Shown here: in pieces, positions 358 through 12,517 of the stretch
Position numbering within the stretch: the stretch's first letter is position 1
Layout of the letters: each line of letters opens with the position of its first letter
Origin: a virus
Length of the DNA: 12,517 nt
UHGV virus genome: UHGV-1669581
Reading direction: 5' to 3' (one strand)
The notes under the pieces: generated by a model
What the model saw: only the letters and a program-made list of their open reading frames with translations
What the model was told of the DNA's origin: nothing
Database searches by the model: none
Program-made: the position numbers and the translations under genes

Positions 358-414
358 AGCAATCTAGATAATCGTGCAGACTACGCCCCCTCATATCACA
401 TGGAAGGTACTACA

Positions 415-825
415 ATGGCTCAGGTTGCCATTTTTAAACAAATATTCGATAAAGTGCGAAATAATTTAAACTATCACTGGTTTTATTCTGAACTAAAACG
501 TCACAATGTCTCACATTACATTTACTATTTAGCCACAGAGAATATTCATCTTGTTCTTGAAAACGATAATACGGTTTTAATAAAAGGACAGGGTAAGGTT
601 GTAAATGTAAGATTTTCAAAAAATAAATGCCTTATAGAAGCCACCTTAAAAGGATTCAAATCAGGAGAGTTATCATTTTACGAATACAGGAAAAATCTTG
701 CTACAGCAGGGGTTTTCAGATGGATTACAAATATCCACGAAAACAAAAGGTATTACTATACCTTTGATAATTCATTACTCTTTACTGAGAACATTCAGAA
801 CACTACACAAATATTTCCGCACTAA
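415..825 (+). CDS. Hypothetical protein, AT-rich moron; possibly a YbcV/DUF1398-like post-lysis accessory protein
   Basis: Open frame 400..825; the ATG at 415 has a GGAAGG RBS about 9 nt upstream, so 415 is the preferred start. Visibly AT-rich with atypical codon usage. Tyr/Asn-rich sequence with no recognisable catalytic motif. The position past the lysis cassette on the opposite strand matches where DLP12 carries borD/ybcV/ybcW/ylcI. Confidence 0.5.
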
Positions 826-2064: not shown

Positions 2065-2526
2065 TTAATTCAGGCATTGCGTCCTGATGTATTCCTGCAG
2101 GTAGTTAACCTGCGCGGTTATCTTGTCGATTCCACTTCGGAGACGGTAATAATTGAGTTCAGCATCTGCTGTAAGTCCTGGGCTTTCTCCATCGCCCATG
2201 CCGCTGGCTCCGGTCGTTGACTTTGCACAGGTGGCAGCGACTTGCAGGCGCTTACGCCCAGCAGAAACATCAGCACGGAGACTTTCGATAGTCGCGTTAG
2301 CATCAGCAAGCTCCTTTGTGTATCTGGCGTCAAGTTCTGCTACGTCACGTTGACGCTTCTGCATATCAGAGATGGTCGCCATAGCCGAATCTAATGCCAT
2401 AGCATTCTCATCACGCTGCTTTTTGTATTCAATAGCTTTATTGTGGTAATGATTCACTGAACAGATAAAAGAACCAACGACAGAAACGAAGAAAACAGCG
2501 ATAACCAGCTTATAGCTCAACTTCAT
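2065..2526 (-). CDS. Rz: Rz i-spanin (inner-membrane spanin subunit)
   Basis: 153 aa with an N-terminal TM segment (LVIAVFFVSVVGSFICSVNHY). Clear similarity to lambda Rz (VNHY..NAI.YK.QRD.NA...MQ.RQRDVA.LDA.YTKELADA...LR.DV.AGR.RL). Follows the endolysin gene with a 17-nt overlap. Confidence 0.88.
   Translation of the reverse strand: MKLSYKLVIAVFFVSVVGSFICSVNHYHNKAIEYKKQRDENAMALDSAMATISDMQKRQRDVAELDARYTKELADANATIESLRADVSAGRKRLQVAATCAKSTTGASGMGDGESPGLTADAELNYYRLRSGIDKITAQVNYLQEYIRTQCLN
2118..2303 (-). CDS. Rz1: Rz1 o-spanin, outer-membrane lipoprotein embedded out of frame within Rz
   Basis: ORF in a different frame, wholly inside Rz. ATG at 2303 with an AAGGAG RBS about 8 nt upstream. Lipoprotein signal peptide MLTRLSKVSVLMFLLGVSA|C with lipobox VSAC, then a Pro-rich mature region (CKSLPPVQSQRPEPAAW) like lambda Rz1. 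The ORF track's longer start at 2333 is a TTG codon. Confidence 0.78.
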   Translation of the reverse strand: MLTRLSKVSVLMFLLGVSACKSLPPVQSQRPEPAAWAMEKAQDLQQMLNSIITVSEVESTR

Positions 2527-2986
2527 TTACCACCCCACCAGCCTCTTTAAACCGGGCAATCAGGTCACCGATTTTATGTTCATACTGACCGTAACCAGCG
2601 CCCGGCAGTGAAGCCCAGATATTGCTGCAACGATCGATAGCCTGACGAATATCGCCGCGATCAATCATCGGTAAAGCGCCACGCTCTTTAATCTGCTGCA
2701 ATGCCACAGCATCCTGGCTTTTTGGAGAGAAGTCTTTCAACCCAAGCTGCTTGCGGTAAGCATCCCACCAGCGTGAAAGAAGTTGATAACGGCCTGCAGC
2801 TGTTGATTTGAGTTTCGGGTTTAGCGTGACAAGTTTGCGAGGGTGATCGGAGTAATCAGTGAAGAGTTCTCCACCGACAATAACGTCATAACCGTGGTTA
2901 CGTGTCAGTTGTCGCCCGTTATCCGTTCCCTCTGACCATGCCACCATATCCAGGAAAGCTTTACGCTGGGAATTTAGTACCTGCAT
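2510..2986 (-). CDS. R: Endolysin, lambda R-type lytic transglycosylase
   Basis: 158 aa, near-collinear with lambda R as recalled (NSQRKAFLDM.AWSEGTDNGRQ.TRNHGYDVIVGGELFTDYSDHPRKLVTLNPKLKST.AGRYQLLSRWWDAYRKQLGLKDFSPKSQDAVALQQIKERGALPMIDRGDIRQAIDRCSNIWASLPGAGYGQ). Confidence 0.95.
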   Translation of the reverse strand: MQVLNSQRKAFLDMVAWSEGTDNGRQLTRNHGYDVIVGGELFTDYSDHPRKLVTLNPKLKSTAAGRYQLLSRWWDAYRKQLGLKDFSPKSQDAVALQQIKERGALPMIDRGDIRQAIDRCSNIWASLPGAGYGQYEHKIGDLIARFKEAGGVVNEVEL

Positions 2987-2989
2987 AAA

Positions 2990-3316
2990 TTACTCCTTAG
3001 AGCCACCAAACTTGTTACCGATTACTCTCATTGCAGCCCCACGAATAGCATCAACACCGATCAGCCCCACCCCACCACCAATGGCAACAGATAGTGATTT
3101 AGGCCATCCGACATACTCAAGAGCGGATGCAAAAGTCAGCGTCAGAGCGCCACAGAGTAGAATTTCGAGTGTTTTTCGCTTCCAGCCGCCACCACCGCCA
3201 AAATAGGCAATACGTAAACCAGCCATAACAATCGACATAATCACTGCGCCCAGCGGTGTGTCTCCACGCCACCAGCTCTGGACCAACTCCAGCCATGTAT
3301 TTGGGTTATGAGGCAT
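2990..3316 (-). CDS. S: Class I holin, lambda S-like
   Basis: 108 aa with three hydrophobic segments and a charged C-terminus. The pattern parallels lambda S (GAILAFAMAYLRGRYNGG...IIAWF... versus GAVIMSIVMAGLRIAYFGGGGG...). Sits directly upstream of R with a 3-nt gap. GAGGTGAGAG RBS. Confidence 0.82.
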   Translation of the reverse strand: MPHNPNTWLELVQSWWRGDTPLGAVIMSIVMAGLRIAYFGGGGGWKRKTLEILLCGALTLTFASALEYVGWPKSLSVAIGGGVGLIGVDAIRGAAMRVIGNKFGGSKE

Positions 3317-3582: not shown

Positions 3583-4329
3583 ATGCGACATAATTTTTCT
3601 AAAGACACTATAAAAAAATTAGCAGAGCGGGCAGCATTCATTTGTTCAAACCCTTCATGCCCTAGATTGACCATTGGCCCATCAATTGATGGCAATAAAT
3701 CAATCAAGACAGGAGTTGCTGCTCACATATGTGCAGCATCTCCTGATGGCCCACGCTATGACATGTCACAATCAGAAACAGAAAGGAAGTCAATTAACAA
3801 TGGCATATGGCTGTGTGCTACTTGTTCTGTATTAATAGATAAGAATCAGGGGCTAGACTATCCGGCACCTGTATTAAGAAAATGGAAAAAAGATCATGAA
3901 AGCCTTATAAGCTCCTGTCTTGAAGGTTCGATTAATATTACCTTCGATGCTTTGAAATATATTCAACAGCATGATGAAAGAAATCTGGCAAAAAAGATTA
4001 TAAATGAATTGGATGATAAAGGGGCTTTGTTCGTAGAATATCATCTTGAAAACCCCTGTTTTGTTGCCGAATCACTCAAAGAGTTAAGAACATGTTTGAC
4101 CTCTTTGCTTTCTCAAATCCCAGATGAATCACCTCTATTTATCGTTTGCAAGTCAATTCGAGAAGCATGCCGTTATTATATGAACAACACTTCTAAAGAC
4201 GCAGGGATTAAAGAGTTAGAATTTTCGTTGGGAGCTGTCAGAAAAATCGTAGGTATCAACGTTAAAAGAATATCAGAAACCTACGGGGTTAAACCTAGCC
4301 CACAATTATCTACCATAATGCCAGATTAA
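3583..4329 (+). CDS. HNH-like nuclease-domain protein with an uncharacterised C-terminal domain; AT-rich moron between Q and the holin (candidate accessory or defence gene)
   Basis: 248-aa ORF on the strand opposite the late genes, visibly AT-rich. The N-terminal ~110 aa carry a zinc-finger HNH-like signature: C21-x4-C26 (CSNPSC), AAH48ICAAS..GPR, N72/N73-G-I-W-L-C78-x2-C81. The C-terminal ~135 aa have no motif I recognise. Followed by its own hairpin terminator. Confidence 0.6.
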   Translation: MRHNFSKDTIKKLAERAAFICSNPSCPRLTIGPSIDGNKSIKTGVAAHICAASPDGPRYDMSQSETERKSINNGIWLCATCSVLIDKNQGLDYPAPVLRKWKKDHESLISSCLEGSINITFDALKYIQQHDERNLAKKIINELDDKGALFVEYHLENPCFVAESLKELRTCLTSLLSQIPDESPLFIVCKSIREACRYYMNNTSKDAGIKELEFSLGAVRKIVGINVKRISETYGVKPSPQLSTIMPD

Positions 4330-4759: not shown

Positions 4760-5755
4760 TCAGGCCAACACACCAATCGCCAGCGCGCGATCGATAAAAC
4801 GAAATATCAGCTCCAGTTGGGAGCCATACTTCTCTTCAAATGCCACGGTATCCGCATGCAGCTCGTCGTGATGCTTTCTGCACAAAGGCAACACAAAGAG
4901 GTCATGCGCTTTTGTACCCATTCCACCCTGACCGTGACCTATCAGGTGGTGGGGATCATCAGCAGGCTTTCCACAACATGCACACGGCTGTGTCTTAACC
5001 CAGCGCGTGTACTTTTCATTAACCCAGCGGCGGCGTTTTGGGCGTAACATAAAAGACTCCGGCGACTCCGGATCCACTTTCAGCGCCAGCACCTTTTTCG
5101 CCTTATCCTGGATGATGCTGGTGGCAGGAACCGAAGGCACAAGGTCACTTTCCCGGGTGACAGACGGCACAACAGGCTTCGGTAATCTCAGTGCCTTACG
5201 GGCTGCACTTTCCGGTAAGGCATCTGCCAGATCATTACGAATCAGCCACCAGCACAGTTCCGGCATTGTCACAACGTGACTATCATCAAAACCGAGATCC
5301 CGACGCACAACAGACAACACCCAGCGGGCACAGTTATCCGTTGCCATTGATTCCAGCCGTTCCGTGAACTGATCGCGAAGCTGGTTATCGCAGTGCCAGC
5401 ACAGACGGATTGCGCCCGGCGCGTGTCGCATTGTGGTCATATTCTCGCTGTGCCAGTCGGAATGAGGCCACTGGCAGCCTTTTTCACGAAGTAACCAGCT
5501 TTCAAGACATTCCACCCCACCAGCACGACGAATCACTGCCTCATTACGGAACACGGCCAGAACGGCAGGATCATCCGCCAGCGGTTGTGATGCCGCAGGA
5601 ACGGCACCACTGGCGAAAGATGAATAACGCTCCGGCTCAGGCTCCAGCAGAACACGCCCCTGCATAAACAGGGGCATCAGCTCTGAACCTGGCCTGAACA
5701 ATACGATCCCCATACGCGGGGCTATTTCAGGGGTCAGTAGTGCTCTCACGGTCAC
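4760..5755 (-). CDS. DUF968-like phage protein with a C-terminal HNH-like zinc-binding motif
   Basis: 331 aa. The C-terminus (PCACCGKPADDPHHLIGHGQGGMGTKAHDLFVLPLCRKHHDELH) is a Cys/His cluster typical of the DUF968/HNH-like proteins found upstream of Q in lambdoid prophages. 1-nt gap to the upstream KilA-N gene. Confidence 0.55.
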   Translation of the reverse strand: MTVRALLTPEIAPRMGIVLFRPGSELMPLFMQGRVLLEPEPERYSSFASGAVPAASQPLADDPAVLAVFRNEAVIRRAGGVECLESWLLREKGCQWPHSDWHSENMTTMRHAPGAIRLCWHCDNQLRDQFTERLESMATDNCARWVLSVVRRDLGFDDSHVVTMPELCWWLIRNDLADALPESAARKALRLPKPVVPSVTRESDLVPSVPATSIIQDKAKKVLALKVDPESPESFMLRPKRRRWVNEKYTRWVKTQPCACCGKPADDPHHLIGHGQGGMGTKAHDLFVLPLCRKHHDELHADTVAFEEKYGSQLELIFRFIDRALAIGVLA

Positions 5756-5756
5756 C

Positions 5757-6554
5757 TCAATGAACGGTATCGAGCAGCTTTAACAGCTCAGGGAATCGGG
5801 ATTCGAAGAAATGCGGCTGCGTCTCGCGCGGATTTGCGGGACTGGTGATGTTCTTGCCGAACATGCAGCCTTTCGCCGTCAGCGACCAGAATTTTTTAAT
5901 GTTGTTAATTGCGGTACGGCTGTATCGTTCGCGTTGTTCAACGATCCCCAGCTTCACCATCTGGTGATATGCCTGATTAGCCGTAAGGCGGATACCATAC
6001 TGTTTCAGCAGTGCACTCAGCGACAGCGTGGGGCGACTTGAGCCATCAGGCGCGTCAGCAGGAGCATCAATGGCATAGCGCGGTGCCAGATTCGGTAAGC
6101 CAACAGCCTCCTGAAGCTTCTGACAGGCTCCAAGCACTGATGAGTTAGACAGGTTTAATTCCCTGCGCATAAAGTCCAGCAGGATCACGCCAGCCTGCAT
6201 CTTGTCAGCAGCCTGCCCGGATATTTTTTCCGGTGTGCTGGTTACCATATCGAAAGTACGGATCACCTTCAGATGGAATGACGGGCTGATCCACATTGCA
6301 TAGGCATACACCAGTTCTTTGCAGACATACGTCCCCTGGTTATTTCCGCCACGAATAACGTTAACTGGCTCTATATTGACCGAGTTGCAAATCTGCAACT
6401 CGCTTATTAAACGTTCAGTTTGCTCATTGCGGAGCCAGAATGCAGGCTTATGCTTATCCAGAGAACCGGCAGCCCTGTGCAGATCGTTCAGGCTGTAACG
6501 CCCATAAGCATCACGACGAACTTCAATACCATCAATGACCATCAGATTATTCAT
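5757..6554 (-). CDS. KilA-N domain protein
   Basis: N-terminal region GRYSLNDLHRAAG...KPAFWLRNEQTERLISEL...GTYVCKELVYAYAMWISPSFHL fits KilA-N. The ATG at 6554 has a GAGGAG RBS 9 nt upstream and is preferred; the longer frame opens at 6587. Confidence 0.7.
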   Translation of the reverse strand: MNNLMVIDGIEVRRDAYGRYSLNDLHRAAGSLDKHKPAFWLRNEQTERLISELQICNSVNIEPVNVIRGGNNQGTYVCKELVYAYAMWISPSFHLKVIRTFDMVTSTPEKISGQAADKMQAGVILLDFMRRELNLSNSSVLGACQKLQEAVGLPNLAPRYAIDAPADAPDGSSRPTLSLSALLKQYGIRLTANQAYHQMVKLGIVEQRERYSRTAINNIKKFWSLTAKGCMFGKNITSPANPRETQPHFFESRFPELLKLLDTVH

Positions 6555-6573
6555 ACTTCGTTTCTCCTCTTGA

Positions 6574-6963
6574 TCAGGCGGCTGCACCCGCCGGTTTCTC
6601 GTACTTACTGATAGTGATCTCGACCTTCCCTTCCGGGATAACCGGTCCCCACTCCACCAACATTCTTTTCACTTGGCTGTCGTCTTCCCACACACCCGCG
6701 TAGGTCAGGGCGTCAAACAGCGCCTTGTTATAGTTGTCCAGATCGCGGATCCGGTTATCCGGAGGAAACAACACGATCTCCACTGAAGCAGGTGCCGACG
6801 TTGGTTTCGGCAGACGACGTAACTGCTCAACTATTGCTGCGCACGCTGCGCTCTGGAATTTTCGCCCCGCCGCGCTTATCAGGCTCTTACCAGCAAACGC
6901 CCCTTTGTTGGGGTGTCGCCAGTACGTGTTCACGCTGGGCGGAAAAGGCAGGATCAGCTTCAT
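6574..6963 (-). CDS. rusA: RusA-family Holliday junction resolvase
   Basis: LPFPPSVNTYWRH and PDNRIRDLDNYNKALFDALTYAGVWEDDSQV match the RusA signature ([44 protein letters not shown]). ATGA start/stop overlap with the upstream gene. Confidence 0.9.
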   Translation of the reverse strand: MKLILPFPPSVNTYWRHPNKGAFAGKSLISAAGRKFQSAACAAIVEQLRRLPKPTSAPASVEIVLFPPDNRIRDLDNYNKALFDALTYAGVWEDDSQVKRMLVEWGPVIPEGKVEITISKYEKPAGAAA

Positions 6964-7286
6964 ACTTTCAGGCCCCTCTCATGTAACCAGTGGGTTGCAC
7001 GCAGCTTTGCGTTTTCCTCACCGGCAAGCAGTGCGCGGATAATCCCGACCGCCTCGCTGTCGTCGTCCTTCACCGCGGTATGAAGCGTTATCCCCCGGGC
7101 CACGCCACGCTTTATCGTGATGACGCCTTTTTTCTCCAGTGCGCGAAGATGCTCCACCGCTGCATTCACCGAACGGTATCCCAGCATGGTTGCCACCTCC
7201 TGATTGGTTGGCGGGAAGCCACGTTCTTTCTGATAAGAAATCAGCATATCCAGCACCTGCTGCTGGCATTGAGTTAACGTCGTCAT
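6960..7286 (-). CDS. LexA-like winged-HTH DNA-binding protein (LexA N-terminal domain only, no peptidase domain)
   Basis: LTQCQQQVLDMLISYQKERGFPPTNQEVATMLGYRSVNAAVEHLRALEKKGVITI parallels the LexA N-terminus ([55 protein letters not shown]). 108 aa, ATGA overlaps at both ends. Confidence 0.65.
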   Translation of the reverse strand: MTTLTQCQQQVLDMLISYQKERGFPPTNQEVATMLGYRSVNAAVEHLRALEKKGVITIKRGVARGITLHTAVKDDDSEAVGIIRALLAGEENAKLRATHWLHERGLKV

Positions 7287-7936
7287 GCCGCCATCTCCCT
7301 GACCAGTTTTTCTGCCTGCTGGCGAACCTGCGCCAGAAACGCCTCACCACATGCCTCAAGTTCATCGCGCCCGATGTAGCTGATTGCCGGTCCCTTCCAG
7401 GTCTTGTCGAAAACAGCAATAGCACCAGCGAAGAAAGCGCCTGTCGGCACCTGCTTCTCGTCCTTCGGGATAAACCAGACAGGCAGTTCAAAACCAATAC
7501 GCCCGCGAATAAAAGCAATATGATCTGCATCTTCCGGCCACCACACTTCGCTGGTGGCAGCTTTGATCAGGAAAACATAGCGCCCGCCTTTATCACGCAT
7601 GGCACTGGCATGCTTCATGATGTAACGCATGCCGGTGATGTATTGCCCCTCATGCTGACTGGCGCGGCTGTATGGGGGATTACCAAAGGCAGCACCTTTA
7701 AGCTCCGCAAGGCGTTCTGACCAGTCATGCGCCAGCGCGTTGTCTTCCGCCGTGTAATACGCAGCACATTTGGCGTTATCACCGTCAGTAAACAGATCCA
7801 GAACAAACGGGCCAAACAGAGTGTTAATTCCCCTGAAAATGTTGTCCGGCGTGCGCCACTGATCGCCCACTTCCTTCAGTTCATGGGCTGGTTTGTTCCG
7901 CAGTTCCGCCAGCGCCTGGCAATATTTATTACTCAT
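7283..7936 (-). CDS. Phage Dam-type DNA N6-adenine methyltransferase (orphan methyltransferase)
   Basis: NPPY motif (AFGNPPYS) and WRTPDNIF-type N-terminus typical of phage N6-adenine methyltransferases. The ATG at 7936 overlaps the upstream stop as TAATG and is the preferred start; the longer frame opens at 7969. Confidence 0.8.
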   Translation of the reverse strand: MSNKYCQALAELRNKPAHELKEVGDQWRTPDNIFRGINTLFGPFVLDLFTDGDNAKCAAYYTAEDNALAHDWSERLAELKGAAFGNPPYSRASQHEGQYITGMRYIMKHASAMRDKGGRYVFLIKAATSEVWWPEDADHIAFIRGRIGFELPVWFIPKDEKQVPTGAFFAGAIAVFDKTWKGPAISYIGRDELEACGEAFLAQVRQQAEKLVREMAA

Positions 7937-8430
7937 TAAGCCCCCACGTAATTCCCTGAGAGATACCACTCTTCACCTGATGCAGCCCGCTTACTGCTTT
8001 TCCGTAAACACCGTTCACGACGCGCCAGAAAATTGTTTCGTTCTGGCTGGGAGTGGCTTTCACGGAATGCCGCCATCCACACCGTTGCAGCACGACGGTA
8101 TAAGCCCCTGGACTCCAGTTCTTCCGCCTGGCGGGTCAGGCACAAAATCACCCGCGGGTCGTTAGTGCCGACATAGAAATTGCGCACAGGTCTGGTTTCA
8201 CGAACTGGTTGTGGTTCCGGATCCTGCGCTCTCTCAGTCAGGCGCGGGAAATGTCTGTGTGTATCTCCTTCACAACGGTGAGCCACACGCCCACTCTGAC
8301 GTAGCTTGCTTGCTGACTGCAGAACGCGCTGCCGTGAGTAACCTGCAAAAGCATCCGCAATGTCTCCGGAAGTACAGCCCGGATGGGCTTCAATGAATTT
8401 CTGAACGTCGTTCAAAAGACTCATGCTCAC
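7936..8430 (-). CDS. PerC-like regulator domain protein (C-terminal PerC/Pch-like motif, N-terminal extension)
   Basis: The C-terminal half contains AEELESRGLYRRAATVWMAAF, resembling the PerC/Pch family signature (EKLE.KGLWRRAA.RW) as I recall it. 164 aa; ATGA overlap with the upstream replication gene. Confidence 0.5.
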   Translation of the reverse strand: MSMSLLNDVQKFIEAHPGCTSGDIADAFAGYSRQRVLQSASKLRQSGRVAHRCEGDTHRHFPRLTERAQDPEPQPVRETRPVRNFYVGTNDPRVILCLTRQAEELESRGLYRRAATVWMAAFRESHSQPERNNFLARRERCLRKSSKRAASGEEWYLSGNYVGA

Positions 8431-9368
8431 CCCCTGAATCCTGCCGGGATCTGGCTGTAGTCCACATTGTCGTAACTGGCTTTGAAGTACGGGTCTTCGC
8501 GTTTTTCTGTGTACGTGCTGACGGACGGCGATAAGCGCAGAGAAAGCTCATCCCATTTTTCCCGCAGCTTCGACGGGCTGAGCACGTTACGGCACCAGAA
8601 CGGATCGCGGCTGACGCGGCTGTACATCTCGCAGATTTGTTTGTGAGTACGACCATCCTGCACACACATCAGGCGAATTTCGTTTGCCCAGGCTGTCCAG
8701 TTCGGTTCTTTGGGACGAACCACCTCGCCGTCACATTCGGCAGCCTGCTCGTACAGGGCGATGATTTTTTTCCAGAGCCACTGTGCGCAGGTCAAATCAT
8801 CCTGCGTCCCCCACTGGCGCTTTTTAGGGCTGAATACAACCGCATCAGGATGGCGAGTTAAAAAATCCTGTTCAGCCGTCTGCGTGTCCGGTTGCGAAGC
8901 GTCCGGACGAGAAGGTTTTTTATCTGACGGATCATGTTTTGATTTTACTGACGGATCCCCGCCAGATTCTGACGGGTGAAAACCCGCTTTTTTGCCAGAT
9001 TTCGACGCATCAAATTTTGACGGGTCAGATTTTGATGCGTCAGATTTTGACGGGTCAGAATCTGACAGTTGAGAAAATGCCGCTGCCTGAAGCTTCGCAA
9101 CGTTAAGCTGATAAACATTCGACGCATTGCGGTTACCCTGGCGACGCGCCTTACGCGTTAACCAGCCTTCTGCTTCCAGCCGTGCGATAGCCGTTCTGAC
9201 GGTACTCATCCCCGCGCCAATCTGACGGGCAATAGTTTCAATTGATGGCCAGCACACACCTTCGTCATTACTGAAATCAGCCAGGCGGGCCATAATTGCC
9301 ACGCTGGATAATTTCATGCCTGATGCAGCGCAACCATCCCATACATAGCCGGTTAATTTAGTGCTCAT
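8427..9368 (-). CDS. Replication initiator protein with N-terminal HTH (O-like), carrying internal iterons
   Basis: N-terminus (SSVAIMARLADFSNDEGVCWPSIETIARQIGAGMSTVRTAIARLEAEGWL) matches the replication-protein HTH pattern common in prophages. The central low-complexity tract (SDSDPSKSDASKSDPSKFDASKSGKK) is encoded by tandem DNA repeats. Confidence 0.75.
   Translation of the reverse strand: MSTKLTGYVWDGCAASGMKLSSVAIMARLADFSNDEGVCWPSIETIARQIGAGMSTVRTAIARLEAEGWLTRKARRQGNRNASNVYQLNVAKLQAAAFSQLSDSDPSKSDASKSDPSKFDASKSGKKAGFHPSESGGDPSVKSKHDPSDKKPSRPDASQPDTQTAEQDFLTRHPDAVVFSPKKRQWGTQDDLTCAQWLWKKIIALYEQAAECDGEVVRPKEPNWTAWANEIRLMCVQDGRTHKQICEMYSRVSRDPFWCRNVLSPSKLREKWDELSLRLSPSVSTYTEKREDPYFKASYDNVDYSQIPAGFRG
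8921..9069. repeat. Iteron-like tandem direct repeats (~15-bp period, ~8 copies) inside the replication initiator gene; putative origin
   Basis: Units such as CAGATTCTGACGGGTG, CAGATTTCGACGCATC, AAATTTTGACGGGTC, AGATTTTGATGCGTC, AGATTTTGACGGGTC, AGAATCTGACAGTT. Analogous to ori-lambda iterons inside gene O. Confidence 0.6.
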
Positions 9369-9377
9369 GACCGACCT

Positions 9378-9716
9378 CTATTTCCCTGAATTTACGACGA
9401 AACTGTTCGAGCGGGCTGAAGCACTCATGCTCATAGCCTTCGCGGAGGTAGATAACTCGTTGTGTTTCCGGCTCCCAACGAATGACTCTGACGGGCACTC
9501 CGTAGTGATCTTTGAACCAGCGGTTAACTTGTCGCAAAGGACTGTCTCCTTCTGCCGGTTGAAATCACCCACAGCCCACTCAGCAAAGCTGTGGGTTACA
9601 ATTTCCCTGTCACCTGGTACATTAACTGCATAGCAATACTCCACCTTCGCTTTTCCACCCGGTACAGGAAGCGCAATCAGTTGCGAGCGAAGGTAGTGTG
9701 TTGTTAAACTGTTCAT
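9378..9716 (-). CDS. Hypothetical protein
   Basis: 112-aa ORF translationally coupled at both ends: ATGA overlap with the upstream gene at 9713..9716, and its stop lies 7 nt before the replication gene start with a GAGG RBS in between. No recognisable domain; the C-terminal half is Ser-rich. Confidence 0.45.
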
Positions 9717-10264
9717 GCGTTAGTTTCTCCACAGTCACGACACGCCACGGCGCCCGGAGCTGCACACTCGCGGGCGTCATTACTTTCTGAAATGCAAAAG
9801 ATTTTGTAGACCAGTGCTGCATGCTCCTGCAGCTTTGAAATTGAGAGATACAGCTCGTCGTTAATTGCTGTCTTCTCATGCGGTTCCACCACACCGTCTT
9901 CGATTGCCGAACGAATCTGTCTGGAATAACTGCCAATCTGTTCAATGACTTCCAGCAGGCGCTGGTTAATATCGGCGTTGTCCACATCCTCGACGTCAGG
10001 AAGAGACACAAAGACGCCATTTGCAGACTGCGCCACAGCGTCAGCAATGAAGTGAGTTCCACCAGCACGTTGCAAAATCATTGCCCATCCCAGCGGGAAA
10101 ATCTGATCGCCATCGGTACGAAGGCGGTTAAATAATGCGTTTTCTGTTACATCCAGCCAGTCAGCTGCTTCAGCGTAACCACCCGGCAACGCTGCGATAG
10201 TTTTTCTGACAGCTTTCACGTACCACTCAGGCTGTTTTTCTACTTTCCAGTGATGCTTACCCAC
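9713..10264 (-). CDS. CII-like / YdaT-like phage regulatory protein
   Basis: 183 aa, second gene after the Cro-like gene (the CII position). Contains a putative HTH ([19 protein letters not shown]) and a C-terminal Cys cluster ([14 protein letters not shown]). The family assignment is from memory and is uncertain. Confidence 0.45.
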
Positions 10265-10517
10265 GGTTCACCTCCTGTTCCTGTGGTTTAAACCCATTCT
10301 GGTTTTGGCTAGATTGAAAACGTGCCGGATAAAGAATCTGCATTTCGCTGACTTCACCCTTAAAAAAATTGGCTAAACGTTCTGCAAGCTCGATAGATGG
10401 AATCTGCTCCAGCCTCTCAATACGACTCAACGTCGCTGGATTGACTTGAACACCCGCAGCAACATGCTGCAAAGTGAAACCATGCGCCTTACGCACATTT
10501 CGTAATGGTGATTGCAT
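10257..10517 (-). CDS. cro: Cro-like HTH (XRE-family) regulator
   Basis: 86 aa with an HTH (FTLQHVAAGVQVNPATLSRIE). Divergent from the CI-like repressor across an operator region. GGAGGG RBS 4 nt upstream. Confidence 0.7.
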   Translation of the reverse strand: MQSPLRNVRKAHGFTLQHVAAGVQVNPATLSRIERLEQIPSIELAERLANFFKGEVSEMQILYPARFQSSQNQNGFKPQEQEVNRG

Positions 10518-10614
10518 ATACCCTCCAAATATTGCGCGTTATGCATGTTATTTCACGCAATTATTTTGCGCAAGTTGATTTGCTTATCGCGCAATAAAGA
10601 AATGTAATAAACGC
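10518..10614. promoter_or_regulatory. Divergent PR/PRM-like promoter and operator region with three operator-like sites at 24-bp spacing
   Basis: Three 15-bp dyad-type sites sharing TTGC/GCAA half-sites: TTGCGCGTTATGCAT (10532..10546), CGCAATTATTTTGCG (10556..10570), TTGCTTATCGCGCAA (10580..10594). Candidate PRM: -35 TTGCTT, -10 TAATAA, ending 5 nt before the cI ATG (leaderless-like). Candidate PR on the minus strand: TTGCGC / TAACAT. Confidence 0.55.
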
Positions 10615-11307
10615 ATGAACATAGGAAACCGAGTCAGACAACTTCGCCAAGCGAAGAACATGAAAATCGCCGATCTCGCTGAAGCAATAGGAGTAGATGC
10701 GGCGAACATCTCGCGCTTAGAAACGGGTAAGCAAAAACAATTTACCGAACAAACACTGAGTAATATTGCCAAGAGCTTAGGTGTTGATATTGCTGATCTC
10801 TTTACCTCTGCCCACAAAAGTAATACTGTATATAAAAACAGTAATAATGAGGATGTTGCGCAGGTGAAGGATGTGTTCCGTATTGAAATGCTGGATATCA
10901 GTGCCAGTGCGGGAAATGGCCTTATCCAGGGCGGTGATGTCATTGATGTGATTCATGCCATCGAATACAGAACTGATAATGCTGTATCAATGTTCGGCGG
11001 ACGACCAGCCAATCACATCAAAGTTATCAACGTTCGTGGGGACAGTATGTGTCCAACCATTGAGCCAGGAGATCTCATCTTCGTTGATGTCAGCATCAAT
11101 CAGTTTGATGGTGATGGTATATATGTCTTTGGTTTTGATGACAAAATATACGTTAAAAGACTTCAAATGATTCCTGACAAACTGCTGGTGATTTCTGATA
11201 ACCAGATTTACCGTGAATGGGGAATTACTAGCGAAAACGAACACCGATTCATGGTCTTTGGAAAGGTCTTAATCAGTCAGTCGCAAACCCTTAAGAGACA
11301 TAATTAA
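10615..11307 (+). CDS. cI: CI-type prophage repressor (N-terminal HTH, C-terminal S24 LexA-like autopeptidase)
   Basis: HTH (MKIADLAEAIGVDAANISRLETGK) plus an S24 domain with catalytic Ser in VRGDSMCPTIEPGD and Lys in KIYVKRL. A candidate Ala-Gly cleavage site lies in ASAGNG. Confidence 0.9.
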   Translation: MNIGNRVRQLRQAKNMKIADLAEAIGVDAANISRLETGKQKQFTEQTLSNIAKSLGVDIADLFTSAHKSNTVYKNSNNEDVAQVKDVFRIEMLDISASAGNGLIQGGDVIDVIHAIEYRTDNAVSMFGGRPANHIKVINVRGDSMCPTIEPGDLIFVDVSINQFDGDGIYVFGFDDKIYVKRLQMIPDKLLVISDNQIYREWGITSENEHRFMVFGKVLISQSQTLKRHN

Positions 11308-11326
11308 CCTCAATATCCCATCCATC

Positions 11327-11350
11327 GGCCACCGAAAGGTGGCTTTTTAT
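11327..11350 (+). terminator. Rho-independent terminator downstream of the repressor gene
   Basis: GCCACC-gaaa-GGTGGC followed by TTTTTATT, 20 nt after the cI stop. Confidence 0.65.
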
Positions 11351-11361
11351 TACCTATAAAT

Positions 11362-11412
11362 TTGCATATTTCGCAAACATCACTTGCATATCTCGCAATT
11401 TAATTTTATCTT
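11362..11412 (+). promoter_or_regulatory. OL/pL-like operator pair with a candidate rightward promoter
   Basis: Two near-identical 15-bp sites, TTGCATATTTCGCAA (11362..11376) and TTGCATATCTCGCAA (11384..11398), 22 bp apart, with the same TTGC-N7-GCAA architecture as the cI/cro operators. The second overlaps a candidate -35 TTGCAT, with a weak -10 TATCTT 17 bp downstream. Confidence 0.45.
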
Positions 11413-11564
11413 TTGTTCCAGACCAACTACAGGATTACAACAAAATCTGGTTGCAACACGGTGCATGTGTCGTAAGCAGTCAGTAAATGTCAAAAACGAA
11501 CAGGCAGGACGCCCACGAAGTAGCCGCCTGGGGCATATGAAGTCCTGGATGATTCGTTAGCAAC

Positions 11565-11601
11565 AAAAAAGCGCCCTACAGGACGCTTAGCTCTTTAACA
11601 A
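11565..11601 (+). promoter_or_regulatory. Hairpin followed by an rrn-type boxA match (GCTCTTTAACAA) in the leader upstream of the first early-left ORF; possible antitermination site
   Basis: GCTCTTTAACAA at 11590..11601 matches the rrn boxA consensus as I recall it (TGCTCTTTAACAA) at 12 of 12 positions. Immediately upstream is an imperfect hairpin GCGCCC-taca-GGACGC, giving the hairpin-then-boxA order of rrn antiterminators. The same hairpin on the minus strand is followed by TTTTTTG and could act as a terminator. Confidence 0.35.
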
Positions 11602-11646
11602 TCTGGTCCCCATCAACAAGTAACTGATAACTTGAGGAGATGTGAA

Positions 11647-11853
11647 ATGCACAAAACAGAACCCAAAATCGTCGCGCCTGGCTACACAGATGAGGAAATT
11701 TATGAGTGGATGACAAAGAAGCTGGCAGCTATAAACCAGCTTCGTGAAGTGCTGTCTTATCGACAGGAAACAATAGACGCCTTAAAAAAACTGGATCAGG
11801 AAATCACGGTTTTATCACAGGATGTTACTTTAGATATTGTGCAGACAAATTAG
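11647..11853 (+). CDS. Hypothetical small protein (68 aa), first ORF downstream of the pL-like region; not N-like
   Basis: ATG at 11647 with a GAGGAG RBS 7 nt upstream; the ORF track's 11632 start is a TTG. Acidic/helical sequence with no arginine-rich motif. AT-rich. Its 3' end overlaps the convergent ORF by 29 nt. Confidence 0.45.
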   Translation: MHKTEPKIVAPGYTDEEIYEWMTKKLAAINQLREVLSYRQETIDALKKLDQEITVLSQDVTLDIVQTN

Positions 11854-12259
11854 GATCCCATTCATTTTCGTCAAAATCATCAAAGTGATGAATTTGTGAT
11901 CTCCAGTCTCGATAATCTAAAAATTTCTGGGCGGTTACGCTTATTTTATCAAGTGTGAGTTCATCCTGAATTGAAAGAAGAAGTTCATCAAATTTCATCT
12001 CATTAATCTGTTTTGGCATCCAGTGATGCTTCATCAGAATAAGGTGAACCAGAGCCTTTTTCCCATTCAACTGATTATAGGGAGTGCCGAATTTCTTCCG
12101 GTGCTCATGTAAGACAAGGTCCAAAAGAGTAAGTAATGTTGCCCTTGATTCAACTTTGCTTATTTCGACTGATGACACTACCCCACTGATTTCAATGCCC
12201 CGATACTTTCCAACATTTTCACAGTGGGATTTGTACAGCGTATAGATATTACCGGACAT
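11825..12259 (-). CDS. Hypothetical protein (144 aa), AT-rich moron convergent with the early-left ORF
   Basis: Good RBS (AAAAGGAAAAGAAA-ATG). Visibly AT-rich with atypical codon usage. No recognisable domain; the C-terminus is acidic (FDDFDENEWDP). Direct repeats lie upstream. Confidence 0.55.
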   Translation of the reverse strand: MSGNIYTLYKSHCENVGKYRGIEISGVVSSVEISKVESRATLLTLLDLVLHEHRKKFGTPYNQLNGKKALVHLILMKHHWMPKQINEMKFDELLLSIQDELTLDKISVTAQKFLDYRDWRSQIHHFDDFDENEWDPNLSAQYLK

Positions 12260-12283
12260 TTCTTTTCCTTTTGCGTTGTTGGG

Positions 12284-12323
12284 GATAACCAGATTAACCG
12301 AATCCTTGTTGTTGGGGAATAAC
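12284..12323. repeat. Two direct repeats, GTTGTTGGGGATAAC and GTTGTTGGGGAATAAC, 23 bp apart, immediately upstream of the 144-aa ORF
   Basis: Read directly from the sequence (12285..12299 and 12308..12323). Located 25-65 bp upstream of the minus-strand start codon at 12259. Confidence 0.5.
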
Positions 12324-12517
12324 TAGGTCCACCTCGCCTGATGTGGCTAAAAGCAGGCACATAACAGCTAAGTATTTTCAACCAGAGAGAATCCTTAGCG
12401 TTGTGGTGAATGCGGCTCAGCGCACGCGGGTTAAGGTTGAGGCTGACAGTCGACCTTCTGTGGATACCCACCCGCCTGGTGTGCAACCTTCGCCAGGCAC
12501 CGGGAGGCACCCGGCAC

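Follow-up and report, generated by a model that had tools for sequence, protein, structure and literature searches.

A candidate accessory gene pair of the ECs1072 and YdfC families, arranged tail to tail past pL in an SfV/SfIV/e14-type prophage

Why should a prophage keep, behind its repressor gene, two AT-rich genes that are read towards each other and end within one another? The question is raised by the UHGV virus genome UHGV-1669581, of which we analysed a stretch of 12,517 nucleotides (the window) that represents the immunity and early region of an E. coli/Shigella prophage of the SfV/SfIV/SfII/e14 type. In this window, a 68-amino-acid (aa) open reading frame (ORF) on the plus strand (11647-11853) and another of 144 aa on the minus strand (11825-12259) converge, and their coordinates confirm the 29-nucleotide (nt) overlap of the two 3' coding ends (11825-11853) reported in an initial annotation. 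That annotation had recognised no motif in either product, a statement that has to be corrected, as both proteins belong to named families, YdfC for the small one and ECs1072 for the large one. Our comparisons point to a candidate accessory pair of recognised architecture, built from two families of unassigned function. The two genes probably constitute a co-inherited, orientation-locked two-gene module, and the fuller explanation that we consider the best one, and in which our confidence is about evenly balanced, is that of a mobile two-gene prophage cassette, with an ECs1072 gene for the lysogenic phase and a YdfC-like partner for the lytic phase.

Both ORFs are real, selected protein-coding genes, because their ratios of nonsynonymous to synonymous substitution (dN/dS, Nei-Gojobori) lie between 0.08 and 0.5, each matches a protein family over its full length, and their homologues conserve length down to 22-40% identity. 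For the large gene the ratio was 0.23 between the window and E. albertii and 0.08 between ST64B and Klebsiella, and for the small gene 0.27-0.5 (0.19 among its sb50-like relatives, described below). Each gene is preceded by a good Shine-Dalgarno sequence (AAGGA, about 8 nt upstream of the ATG of the 144-aa gene; GAGGAG, 11634-11639, for the 68-aa gene), and each product has a confident structure model. Translation of the small gene from the TTG at 11632 would give 73 aa; from the ATG at 11647, which GAGGAG precedes by 7 nt, it gives the 68 aa used here. These observations refute the explanation that the two are chance open frames in AT-rich leader DNA, in favour of which it may be noted that some of these genes are overlooked or wrongly called in the annotations of SfIV, ST64B and Sakai.

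The 144-aa protein matched the NCBIfam model NF033230 ('ECs1072 family phage-associated protein') with 157.8 bits over model positions 2-142 of 142 (curated cut-off, 70 bits) and phrog_5286 over its full length (E 1.5e-90), and RefSeq names the identical protein WP_000016389.1 as an ECs1072 family phage-associated protein. A HMMER scan of 1.8 billion cluster representatives retrieved 65 clusters (50% identity), nearly all of 143-157 aa; His71 and Trp133 are invariant in the family, and Arg53, Leu63, Gly65, Ala68 and Trp79 nearly so. The AlphaFold2 (AF2) model is all-alpha, with a predicted local distance difference test (pLDDT) score of 95.7, and the protein, like the 68-aa one, is without a hydrophobic stretch, the two having a grand average of hydropathy (GRAVY) of -0.46 and -0.47. 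No structural relative of the model was found in BFVD at E <= 0.001, and neither the comparison of the ECs1072 profile with PDB sequences nor the Pfam scans of 51 family members gave a match. Judging from the model, the 144-aa protein seems to be an orphan fold, and both families appear to be without assigned function: a literature search on YdfC function, ECs1072 and the two WP accessions found no functional study.

The 68-aa protein aligned over residues 1-68 of 68 with phrog_1744 (E 1.2e-34) and, by tblastn, over residues 1-66 with phage ydfC/YdfC-family genes (40.9% identity, E 5e-9; 19 phage records), the matches being Tritos, Qin and PPompW-type phages. It begins with MHKTEPKIVAPGYTDEE, is acidic (8 Lys and Arg, 12 Asp and Glu, isoelectric point, pI, 4.78), and has the motif EPKIVAPGYTDEEIYEWM ahead of a single long helix, the AF2 model (pLDDT 87) consisting of a 14-residue N-terminal tail and a helix at residues 15-67. 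In Pfam, the 68-aa and 144-aa proteins had no match at E <= 1 except for a sub-threshold one to NICE-3, and PADLOC-DB 2.0 gave 0 families at E <= 1 for either. The homology searches and structure predictions that the initial annotation had proposed as a check were thus productive as regards named families and confident models, and returned neither structural relatives (BFVD) nor a known defence family (PADLOC). The same annotation had allowed that the genes might prove to be ordinary early-left phage genes, and for the 68-aa ORF this is true to the letter, YdfC being a common early-left gene of Qin/Tritos-type prophages; YdfC itself is without known function.

The relation between the two genes becomes apparent when their homologues are followed through other prophages. 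A tail-to-tail partner with the YdfC-like motif was identified in 12 of the 14 distinct ECs1072 contexts, and the orientation is constant in all 12 pairs, the small gene lying along the lytic operon and the ECs1072 gene against it. These pairs occupy three slots. One follows pL, another separates cII from O (O157 Sakai Sp4), and the third is situated between Q and the holin gene (ST64B and Klebsiella phages). In the slot after pL, Proteus, Providencia and five metagenome/genome contigs carry ECs1072 homologues 21-58% identical to the window protein, and the S24 repressor gene is followed by a YdfC-like gene and then by an ECs1072 gene antisense to the repressor gene and the early-left operon. 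This order was observed in E. albertii, Proteus, Providencia, L017, L018, L023 and L025-L027; in Proteus, Providencia and the contigs the partner is either a YdfC-like protein of 67-73 aa or a motif-bearing protein of 190-212 aa, the two genes usually overlapping. In the Q-holin slot, ST64B and five Klebsiella phages hold an unannotated full-length ECs1072 homologue (144 or 157 aa), antisense to every neighbour, which has an overlap of 71-95 nt with the 3' end of sb50 or of the sb50 orthologue (phrog_3501). The archetype of the family, ECs1072 of O157 Sakai Sp4 (at present named ECs_5703), stands in the cII-O slot, before the replication gene; it is again antisense and overlaps an unannotated motif-bearing ORF. 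Conservation in related prophages, on which the initial annotation had made its proposal depend, was therefore found, both ORFs being conserved together, tail to tail, across Enterobacterales and in three positions.

Co-occurrence is asymmetric. Eight of the 11 phage records with an sb50-like gene also have a full ECs1072-like gene, two are of a phage with a remnant, observed next to one of its copies, and one is without; in 118970_sal3 only a C-terminal ECs1072-like remnant abuts the sb50-like gene, and in SKA5 the sb50-like gene stands alone. ydfC without an ECs1072 gene was found in 19 Qin/Tritos/PPompW-type phage records. A scan of viral contigs with a single protein (query P0017) gave no match.

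Several of the genes discussed here are absent from the deposited annotations, namely the ECs1072 homologues of ST64B (L013 2845-3279, plus strand) and Klebsiella KPP5665-2 (L014 3318-3791, plus strand), the partner ORF of Sakai Sp4 (L021 19117-19677, plus strand) and a metagenomic YdfC-like gene (L026 604-819, minus strand). The start of ST64B sb50, judged by phrog_3501, was apparently called 34 codons too early.

The partners were compared by means of a YdfC hidden Markov model (HMM), built from five clear YdfC-like proteins and searched against 4047 six-frame ORFs (at least 30 aa; 225 kb). Behind the evident family members, the next ranks were taken by sb50-like proteins (E 6e-4), the Sakai ORF (1e-3), ST64B sb50 (3e-3) and the Klebsiella partner (0.016), with the truncated ORF of L017 at E 0.56 and unrelated ORFs starting at about E 1. 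The partners, the long ones included, have a common pattern, E/Q-P-x-[IVF]-x(3-6)-G/x-...-[ILV]-x-x-W-[LMI], then a long helix; used as a regular expression, composed after the partners were known, it gave 22 matches, 21 of them within partner or YdfC-like genes.

Could the two genes nevertheless be independent neighbours, a YdfC-like gene that is a common first gene of the lytic operon and an ECs1072 gene that is an unrelated single-gene moron, with compaction as the only reason for the overlap? This is the most serious competitor of a two-gene module, and we regard it as unlikely. An initial view of unrelated neighbours, based on the discordance in E. albertii and on L004, was overturned by the ST64B, Klebsiella and Sakai contexts. 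Independence would account for the frequency of YdfC-like proteins without ECs1072 (Qin/Tritos-type, SKA5) and for the lone minus-strand cargo genes that occupy the slot between identical flanks in other prophages; it does not account for the relative orientation kept in 12 of the 14 contexts over three slots, for the near-constant company of an ECs1072-like gene or remnant in which sb50-like genes occur, or for SfV-type prophages, which gain or lose both genes jointly. The spacing of the two genes agrees better with independence, as the pairs of relatives show overlaps of 47-317 nt or gaps of 34-499 nt, so that the range, with the window included, runs from overlaps of 29-317 nt to gaps of up to 499 nt.

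Several further observations weigh against a locked pair with the division of labour that we propose. L004, with a 56% identical homologue, and L024 have an ECs1072 gene and no motif-bearing partner. In E. albertii (L005) the large gene is 72% identical to that of the window, and the small gene is 96% identical over its N-terminal 48 residues and then frameshifted; the partner, truncated also in L017, is possibly dispensable. The identities within pairs are only loosely correlated (r 0.56), with mosaic, discordant values in L005 and between L023 and L016, where ECs1072 is 89% and the short partner 27% identical. The likeness of sb50-like proteins and of the Sakai partner to YdfC is weak, and the regular expression was post hoc. 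The many cases in the pL slot could go back to a single region passed on vertically with both genes, and only two independent relocations would then be left. Lastly, neither a scan nor a relaxed scan detected a sigma-70 consensus upstream of the 144-aa gene, the best scores not exceeding the background median.

We still prefer a co-inherited module, and its mobility is best seen from the slot in which it resides. Both genes lie in a swappable cassette (11607-12274, delimited by homology breakpoints): homology to L008-L010 ends at 11606 and restarts at 12275, and that to SfV, SfII and e14 ends at about 11558 and restarts at 12329. The region's flanks were matched by 1946 complete E. coli genomes out of 5426, and at least 80% of the query, that is, the cassette, by only 397. 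By these comparisons, the slot is a swap site for cargo in SfV/SfIV/e14-type prophages, which bears out the earlier description of an immunity-proximal cargo site. The alternative cargo comprises a 171-aa or 167-aa minus-strand gene (phrog_1244, phrog_3983), SfII_36 on the minus strand, orf33 of SfV on the plus strand, a BRCT-domain gene accompanied by one for a ClpX-type zinc finger and, in K-12 e14, ymfJ (plus strand) with ymfI (minus strand). As a separate observation, one slot variant (L011 507-1397, E. coli MS1679 prophage) has a 296-aa BRCT-domain gene that lies antisense and extends over the 3' end of the repressor gene, and its product weakly matches the PADLOC candidate PDC-S48 (E 2.4e-7).

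The boundaries of the slot seem to serve whatever minus-strand gene is inserted. On the left, a minus-strand intrinsic terminator (11560-11588; hairpin 11569-11588) reads AAGCGTCCTGTAGGGCGCTT followed by TTTTTGTTGC, with an 8-bp stem including five GC pairs and a 4-nt loop. As a canonical terminator by its sequence, we take it as the putative end of the transcription unit of the 144-aa gene, beyond the 68-aa gene. It lies within a flank (11492-11606) common to prophages with other minus-strand cargo. On the right, a conserved 5' flank of 55 nt (12275-12329, minus strand) lies directly upstream of the cargo start codon and is identical before three unrelated minus-strand cargo genes (144, 171 and 167 aa). 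Prophages with the 171-aa or 167-aa cargo share both AAGCGTCCTGTAGGGCGCTT with its U tract (11569-11588) and 12275-12329, and because terminator and 5' flank are common to prophages with different cargo, the slot seems to act like a socket in reverse orientation, of which the 5' flank and the terminator are the fixed parts. A direct repeat, GTTGTTGGGGA (12275-12285 and 12308-12318, 33 nt apart), is kept with the three different cargo genes and may be a regulatory site. The 68-aa ORF contains another terminator-like hairpin of the minus strand (11718-11743; GAAGCTGGTTTATAGCTGCCAGCTTC followed by TTTGTCATCC), which has a weaker U tract and may be coincidental. Folding of the minus-strand 3' untranslated region (UTR) gave no significant z-score.

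We suggest the following working for the cassette. With pL repressed in the lysogen, transcription of the ECs1072 gene would proceed from the conserved flank on the right; a messenger ending at 11569-11588 would have a 3' UTR of about 260 nt, antisense to the entire ydfC-like gene including its ribosome-binding site. Upon induction, the pL transcript would cross the ECs1072 gene in antisense on its way towards yfdP, xis and int, silencing ECs1072, and would at the same time yield the YdfC-like protein, so that expression of the two would be mutually exclusive. In E. coli 90-1, whose chromosome is 99.8% identical to the window over 11300-12517, the operon runs on into yfdP, yfdQ, yfdR, xis and int, and then to a tRNA-Thr attachment site. 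Two observations are indirect hints at such expression. An ECs1072 transcript was detected by microarray in uninduced Sakai, where it was growth-phase regulated. In e14, the ymfI-ymfJ pair is among the convergent excludons defined by RNA-seq, and in the SOS response ymfJ rises late by 4-4.8 log2 and ymfI by at most 2 log2.

The same geometry may be read at the level of RNA, antisense transcription past pL, pR-cII or pR' curbing leaky lytic transcription in lysogens (an excludon, or transcriptional interference) with the proteins as secondary. Such a brake would suit the constant placement of the ECs1072 gene, always antisense and just past a major lytic promoter region, the position of the terminator, which makes the ECs1072 3' UTR complementary to the whole small gene, and the listing of e14 ymfI-ymfJ, of the same slot, as an excludon. 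As the main reason for the arrangement it is nonetheless improbable, given the strong purifying selection on the ECs1072 protein (dN/dS 0.08-0.23), the invariance of His71 and Trp133 and a fold kept across members at only 22% identity (pLDDT 95.7), which together indicate that the protein itself is under selection.

The convergent arrangement also recalls some prophage type I toxin-antitoxin loci, in which the genes converge and overlap at their 3' ends, and the initial annotation had mentioned toxin-antitoxin modules as a model for antisense control. An addiction module of this sort, with a toxic protein and either an antidote or a type I-like antisense RNA that stabilises the prophage, would share with such loci the 3' overlap, and the asymmetry of co-occurrence resembles that of orphan antitoxins. 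It is a still more improbable explanation than an RNA-level brake: Pfam and NCBIfam show no toxin-antitoxin domains, neither protein is a small hydrophobic peptide (GRAVY -0.46 and -0.47), the genes are not co-transcribed, and in some lysogens the partner is frameshifted or truncated and the large gene kept, which argues that the large gene is not lethal alone. Of the antisense control proposed earlier, what stands is that the geometry, with the terminator at 11569-11588, permits antisense or mutually exclusive expression, and what falls is the classical toxin-antitoxin system.

The closest architectural parallels of a lysogen-phase gene with a lytic-phase partner come from prophage defence genes with self-immunity genes on the opposite strand, of which TERi (TerI/anti-TerI, Listeria phi10403S), Tab, Tai/Ati (phi80), Tha/Ith and BstA/aba have been described. 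With the TERi/Tab/Tai-Ati/Tha-Ith type the window pair shares the placement of one gene opposite the lytic operon and of its partner inside the operon, as well as a co-distribution in which the 'defence' member is rarely without its partner and the partner is able to stand alone. Opposite-strand overlap is shared too, as TerI orf65 overlaps LMRG_02984 and phi80 orf63 overlaps orf64, with the difference that phi80 orf63/orf64 are head to head and the window pair is tail to tail. The likeness to TerI, Tab and Tha is one of described architecture, and the window pair has no PADLOC 2.0 match. Membership in Tai/Ati was rejected, since the ECs1072 and YdfC HMMs, searched against six-frame ORFs of phi80 30-46 kb (orf62-66 included), gave best E-values of 1.2 and 0.57, neither of them for orf63 or orf64.

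Since the ECs1072 gene is nearly always partnered and the partner is often alone, we favour, with somewhat less than even confidence, a reading by which the ECs1072 protein would benefit the lysogen, through superinfection exclusion or abortive infection, and the YdfC-like protein would be its neutraliser in the lytic phase, conferring self-immunity. A function in defence or exclusion is suggested here by architecture. The initial annotation had proposed such an exclusion or defence module; comparative evidence strengthens its kernel, a functionally coupled antisense pair, and PADLOC gave no match and no promoter was identified for the 144-aa gene. Stand-alone YdfC-like proteins of other phages would then be counter-defence genes. 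More tentatively, ECs1072/YdfC-like might be an unrecognised prophage defence and self-immunity system, spread throughout Enterobacterales, with an effector or sensor of new fold, a YdfC-like inhibitor and orphan YdfC proteins (that of K-12 Qin included) acting in anti-defence.

The cassette or its relatives occur in about 7% of complete E. coli genomes and in prophages of Shigella (SfIV), Salmonella (ST64B), O157 Sakai (Sp4), Klebsiella, Proteus and Providencia, and members of both families are frequent in strains that have been studied intensively (K-12 Qin, O157 Sakai, S. Typhimurium SL1344/ST64B and, from Shigella, the serotype-converting phages). The conserved, locked pair turns two anonymous ORFs into a two-component hypothesis of a lysogen gene and a lytic-phase partner. 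Should defence and self-immunity prove true, a new effector fold would be added to prophage-encoded immunity, orphan YdfC would be explained as counter-defence, giving a function to a long-standing y-gene, and the stretch from pL to the STnc100-like region of SfV/e14-type prophages would stand out as a hotspot for cargo, equipped with a terminator of its own and with a 5' flank that is conserved.

Among individual relatives, K-12 Qin YdfC (ydfABC-dicF-dicB-ydfD operon) resembles the 68-aa protein in size, belongs to a family whose phage members are 41% identical to the latter over 66 residues, lies near the start of a repressor-controlled early-left operon, and is followed by an untranslated stretch with a small RNA (sRNA), DicF there and STnc100-like here. 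The Qin/Tritos-type ydfC differs in that no ECs1072 gene lies opposite and that ydfA and ydfB precede it, the order in Tritos being cI, ydfA, ydfB, ydfC, DicF, dicB, ydfD, exoVIII (a Qin-type early-left operon). The first three proteins of the Qin early-left operon have been described as 'of unknown function'. Sakai ECs1072 (ECs_5703), the archetype of NF033230, shares with the window gene its family (A1-profile E 5e-14 for the Sakai protein), antisense placement and an overlapping partner ORF; it differs in its site, between cII and the replication gene, in being divergent and without the HR and ALxH histidines of the family, and in having an unannotated partner with an overlap of up to 317 nt. 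The e14 genes ymfJ/ymfI (L012 1872-2459) occupy the same slot, with the S24 repressor on one side and the STnc100-like/ymfH region on the other, and are likewise convergent, with a 63-nt overlap and a plus-strand member that is induced with the prophage; they belong to other families (phrog_12693 and phrog_8894) and match neither the YdfC nor the ECs1072 HMM. Tail-to-tail pairs thus seem to be a recurrent design at this slot, not the peculiarity of one cassette.

The pair had also been placed in the slot that lambda uses for rexAB and sieB. It does lie past the cI terminator and the OL/pL-like operators, in AT-rich DNA, as the hairpin, the operators and the GC content (0.37-0.42 over 11551-12300, which spans the gene pair, vs 0.48-0.59 over 4800-10000, with core phage genes) confirm, and the 68-aa ORF is indeed in the N position without an arginine-rich motif. 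The rexAB slot is another matter, as the cI terminator and both OL operators separate cI from the pair, which is the N position past pL. The rexAB genes stand upstream of OL and share a transcript with cI, and the orientation of sieB is that of pL. Like lambda N, rexAB, sieB and P22 sieB/esc, the pair is immunity-proximal, with the small gene as the first ORF after pL, behind a boxA-like element. It differs from rexAB and sieB in that its candidate lysogen gene is antisense to pL, and the 68-aa protein, being acidic and without an arginine-rich motif, differs from lambda N and was rejected as an N analogue. Membership in the rexAB or SieB families was rejected as well, given the Pfam result, in which no family was matched at E <= 1 beyond sub-threshold NICE-3.

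The immunity region itself could be defined in some detail. A cI-like repressor with a helix-turn-helix (HTH) and a Peptidase_S24 domain is encoded at 10615-11307 on the plus strand (Pfam Peptidase_S24 E 6e-19, HTH_3 E 1e-11; DNA 99% identical to SfII cI) and is followed by an intrinsic terminator (11327-11350, plus strand; hairpin 11327-11344), GGCCACCGAAAGGTGGCT followed by TTTTATT, that is also annotated as a terminator in SfII and SfV. Two OL-type operators of 15 bp, TTGC-N7-GCAA, come next (11362-11376, TTGCATATTTCGCAA; 11384-11398, TTGCATATCTCGCAA), with the consensus TTGCATAT(T/C)TCGCAA. The sole further TTGC-N7-GCAA of the window is located between cI and cro (10580-10594), which makes three matches vs 0.58 expected by chance, and because the sequence is confined to these two places the OL/pL assignment is reasonable. 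A candidate pL (11384-11412; TTGCAT, 17-nt spacer, TATCTT) was read by eye, and its hexamers are below the threshold of the promoter scan, so that we infer pL from its setting.

The pL leader contains a conserved segment (11487-11560, plus strand), identified by sequence comparison as the left flank of the variable slot, with 85-99% identity in SfV, SfII, e14, ST64B and Citrobacter phiNP and different DNA beyond; 70 nt of leader conservation reach phages of Citrobacter, Salmonella, Pectobacterium and Yersinia. Folding of the leader (11415-11610) gave no significant z-score. An element at 11590-11601 (plus strand), GCTCTTTAACAA, is an exact single match (0.07 expected at one mismatch or less) to what we take to be an rrn/lambdoid boxA, of exact rrn type. 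No boxB hairpin was found 3' of it, and the adjacent hairpin precedes boxA and reads better as the minus-strand terminator. Since no N-like protein is encoded here, phages of this type may use another antitermination at pL, perhaps RNA-based or Nus-factor-based.

On its right, the slot is flanked by an STnc100-like prophage sRNA region (12373-12517, plus strand), which continues past the end of the window (Rfam RF02076, 25.5 bits truncated). In Kati the complete copy reaches 43.4 bits (E 1.7e-7), slightly under the gathering score of 47, and the region is 95% identical to the K-12 e14 ymfH region. This DNA (continuing in L002 1598-1821) is annotated as the protein gene ymfH in e14 and as 'frameshifted hypothetical protein' pseudogenes in other RefSeq genomes, and such ymfH-type coding sequence calls over STnc100-like DNA may be spurious. 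Between slot and sRNA region lies a conserved hairpin (12329-12346, CCAC...GTGG), whose loop GCCTG (12336-12340) is complementary to CAGGC (12354-12358), so that a pseudoknot or an alternative pairing at 12329-12358 is possible. Prophages of Proteus and Providencia retain the hairpin, in which a change in the stem is compensatory (CCACC/GGTGG vs CCACA/TGTGG); it is annotated as a terminator in SfV, yet it has no U tract.

Over 11300-12517 the window is 98-99% identical to phages Kati, vB_EcoS-569R4 and SfIV. The rightward genes are on the minus strand and comprise a cro-like HTH gene (10257-10517), a CP76-type cII (9713-10264), replication and Nin-type genes, two KilA-N genes and a lysis cassette (about 2065-3316). 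A near-perfect long hairpin of 75 nt (8993-9067, minus strand), made of repeated TCTGAC/GTCAGA units, is found near the start of the replication-protein gene (8427-9368) and may be an inverted repeat of origin or iteron type; a match to the microRNA mir-5880 at the same position was rejected as spurious, as it is produced by the long hairpin.

Two other genes of the window run against their surroundings. A 141-aa DUF1398 gene (400-825, plus strand, E 3e-43) is located where the window is richest in AT (GC 0.32-0.37) and opposes the neighbouring lysis and KilA-N genes, which makes it another reverse-oriented moron. A 248-aa ORF (3583-4329, plus strand; GC 0.35-0.40) is antisense to every neighbour, between a DUF968/HNH gene (4760-5755, minus strand) and the holin gene (2990-3316, minus strand). 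It had no Pfam match, and it matched, over its N-terminal 130 aa, the PADLOC candidate defence protein PDC-M68A (E 7.5e-27), as well as endonuclease effector models of the type of cyclic oligonucleotide-based antiphage signalling systems (CBASS; E 5e-21), so that it is likely a second defence moron of this prophage. Its site resembles the late-region slot, immediately upstream of the holin gene, in which ST64B and the Klebsiella phages hold their ECs1072 pair.

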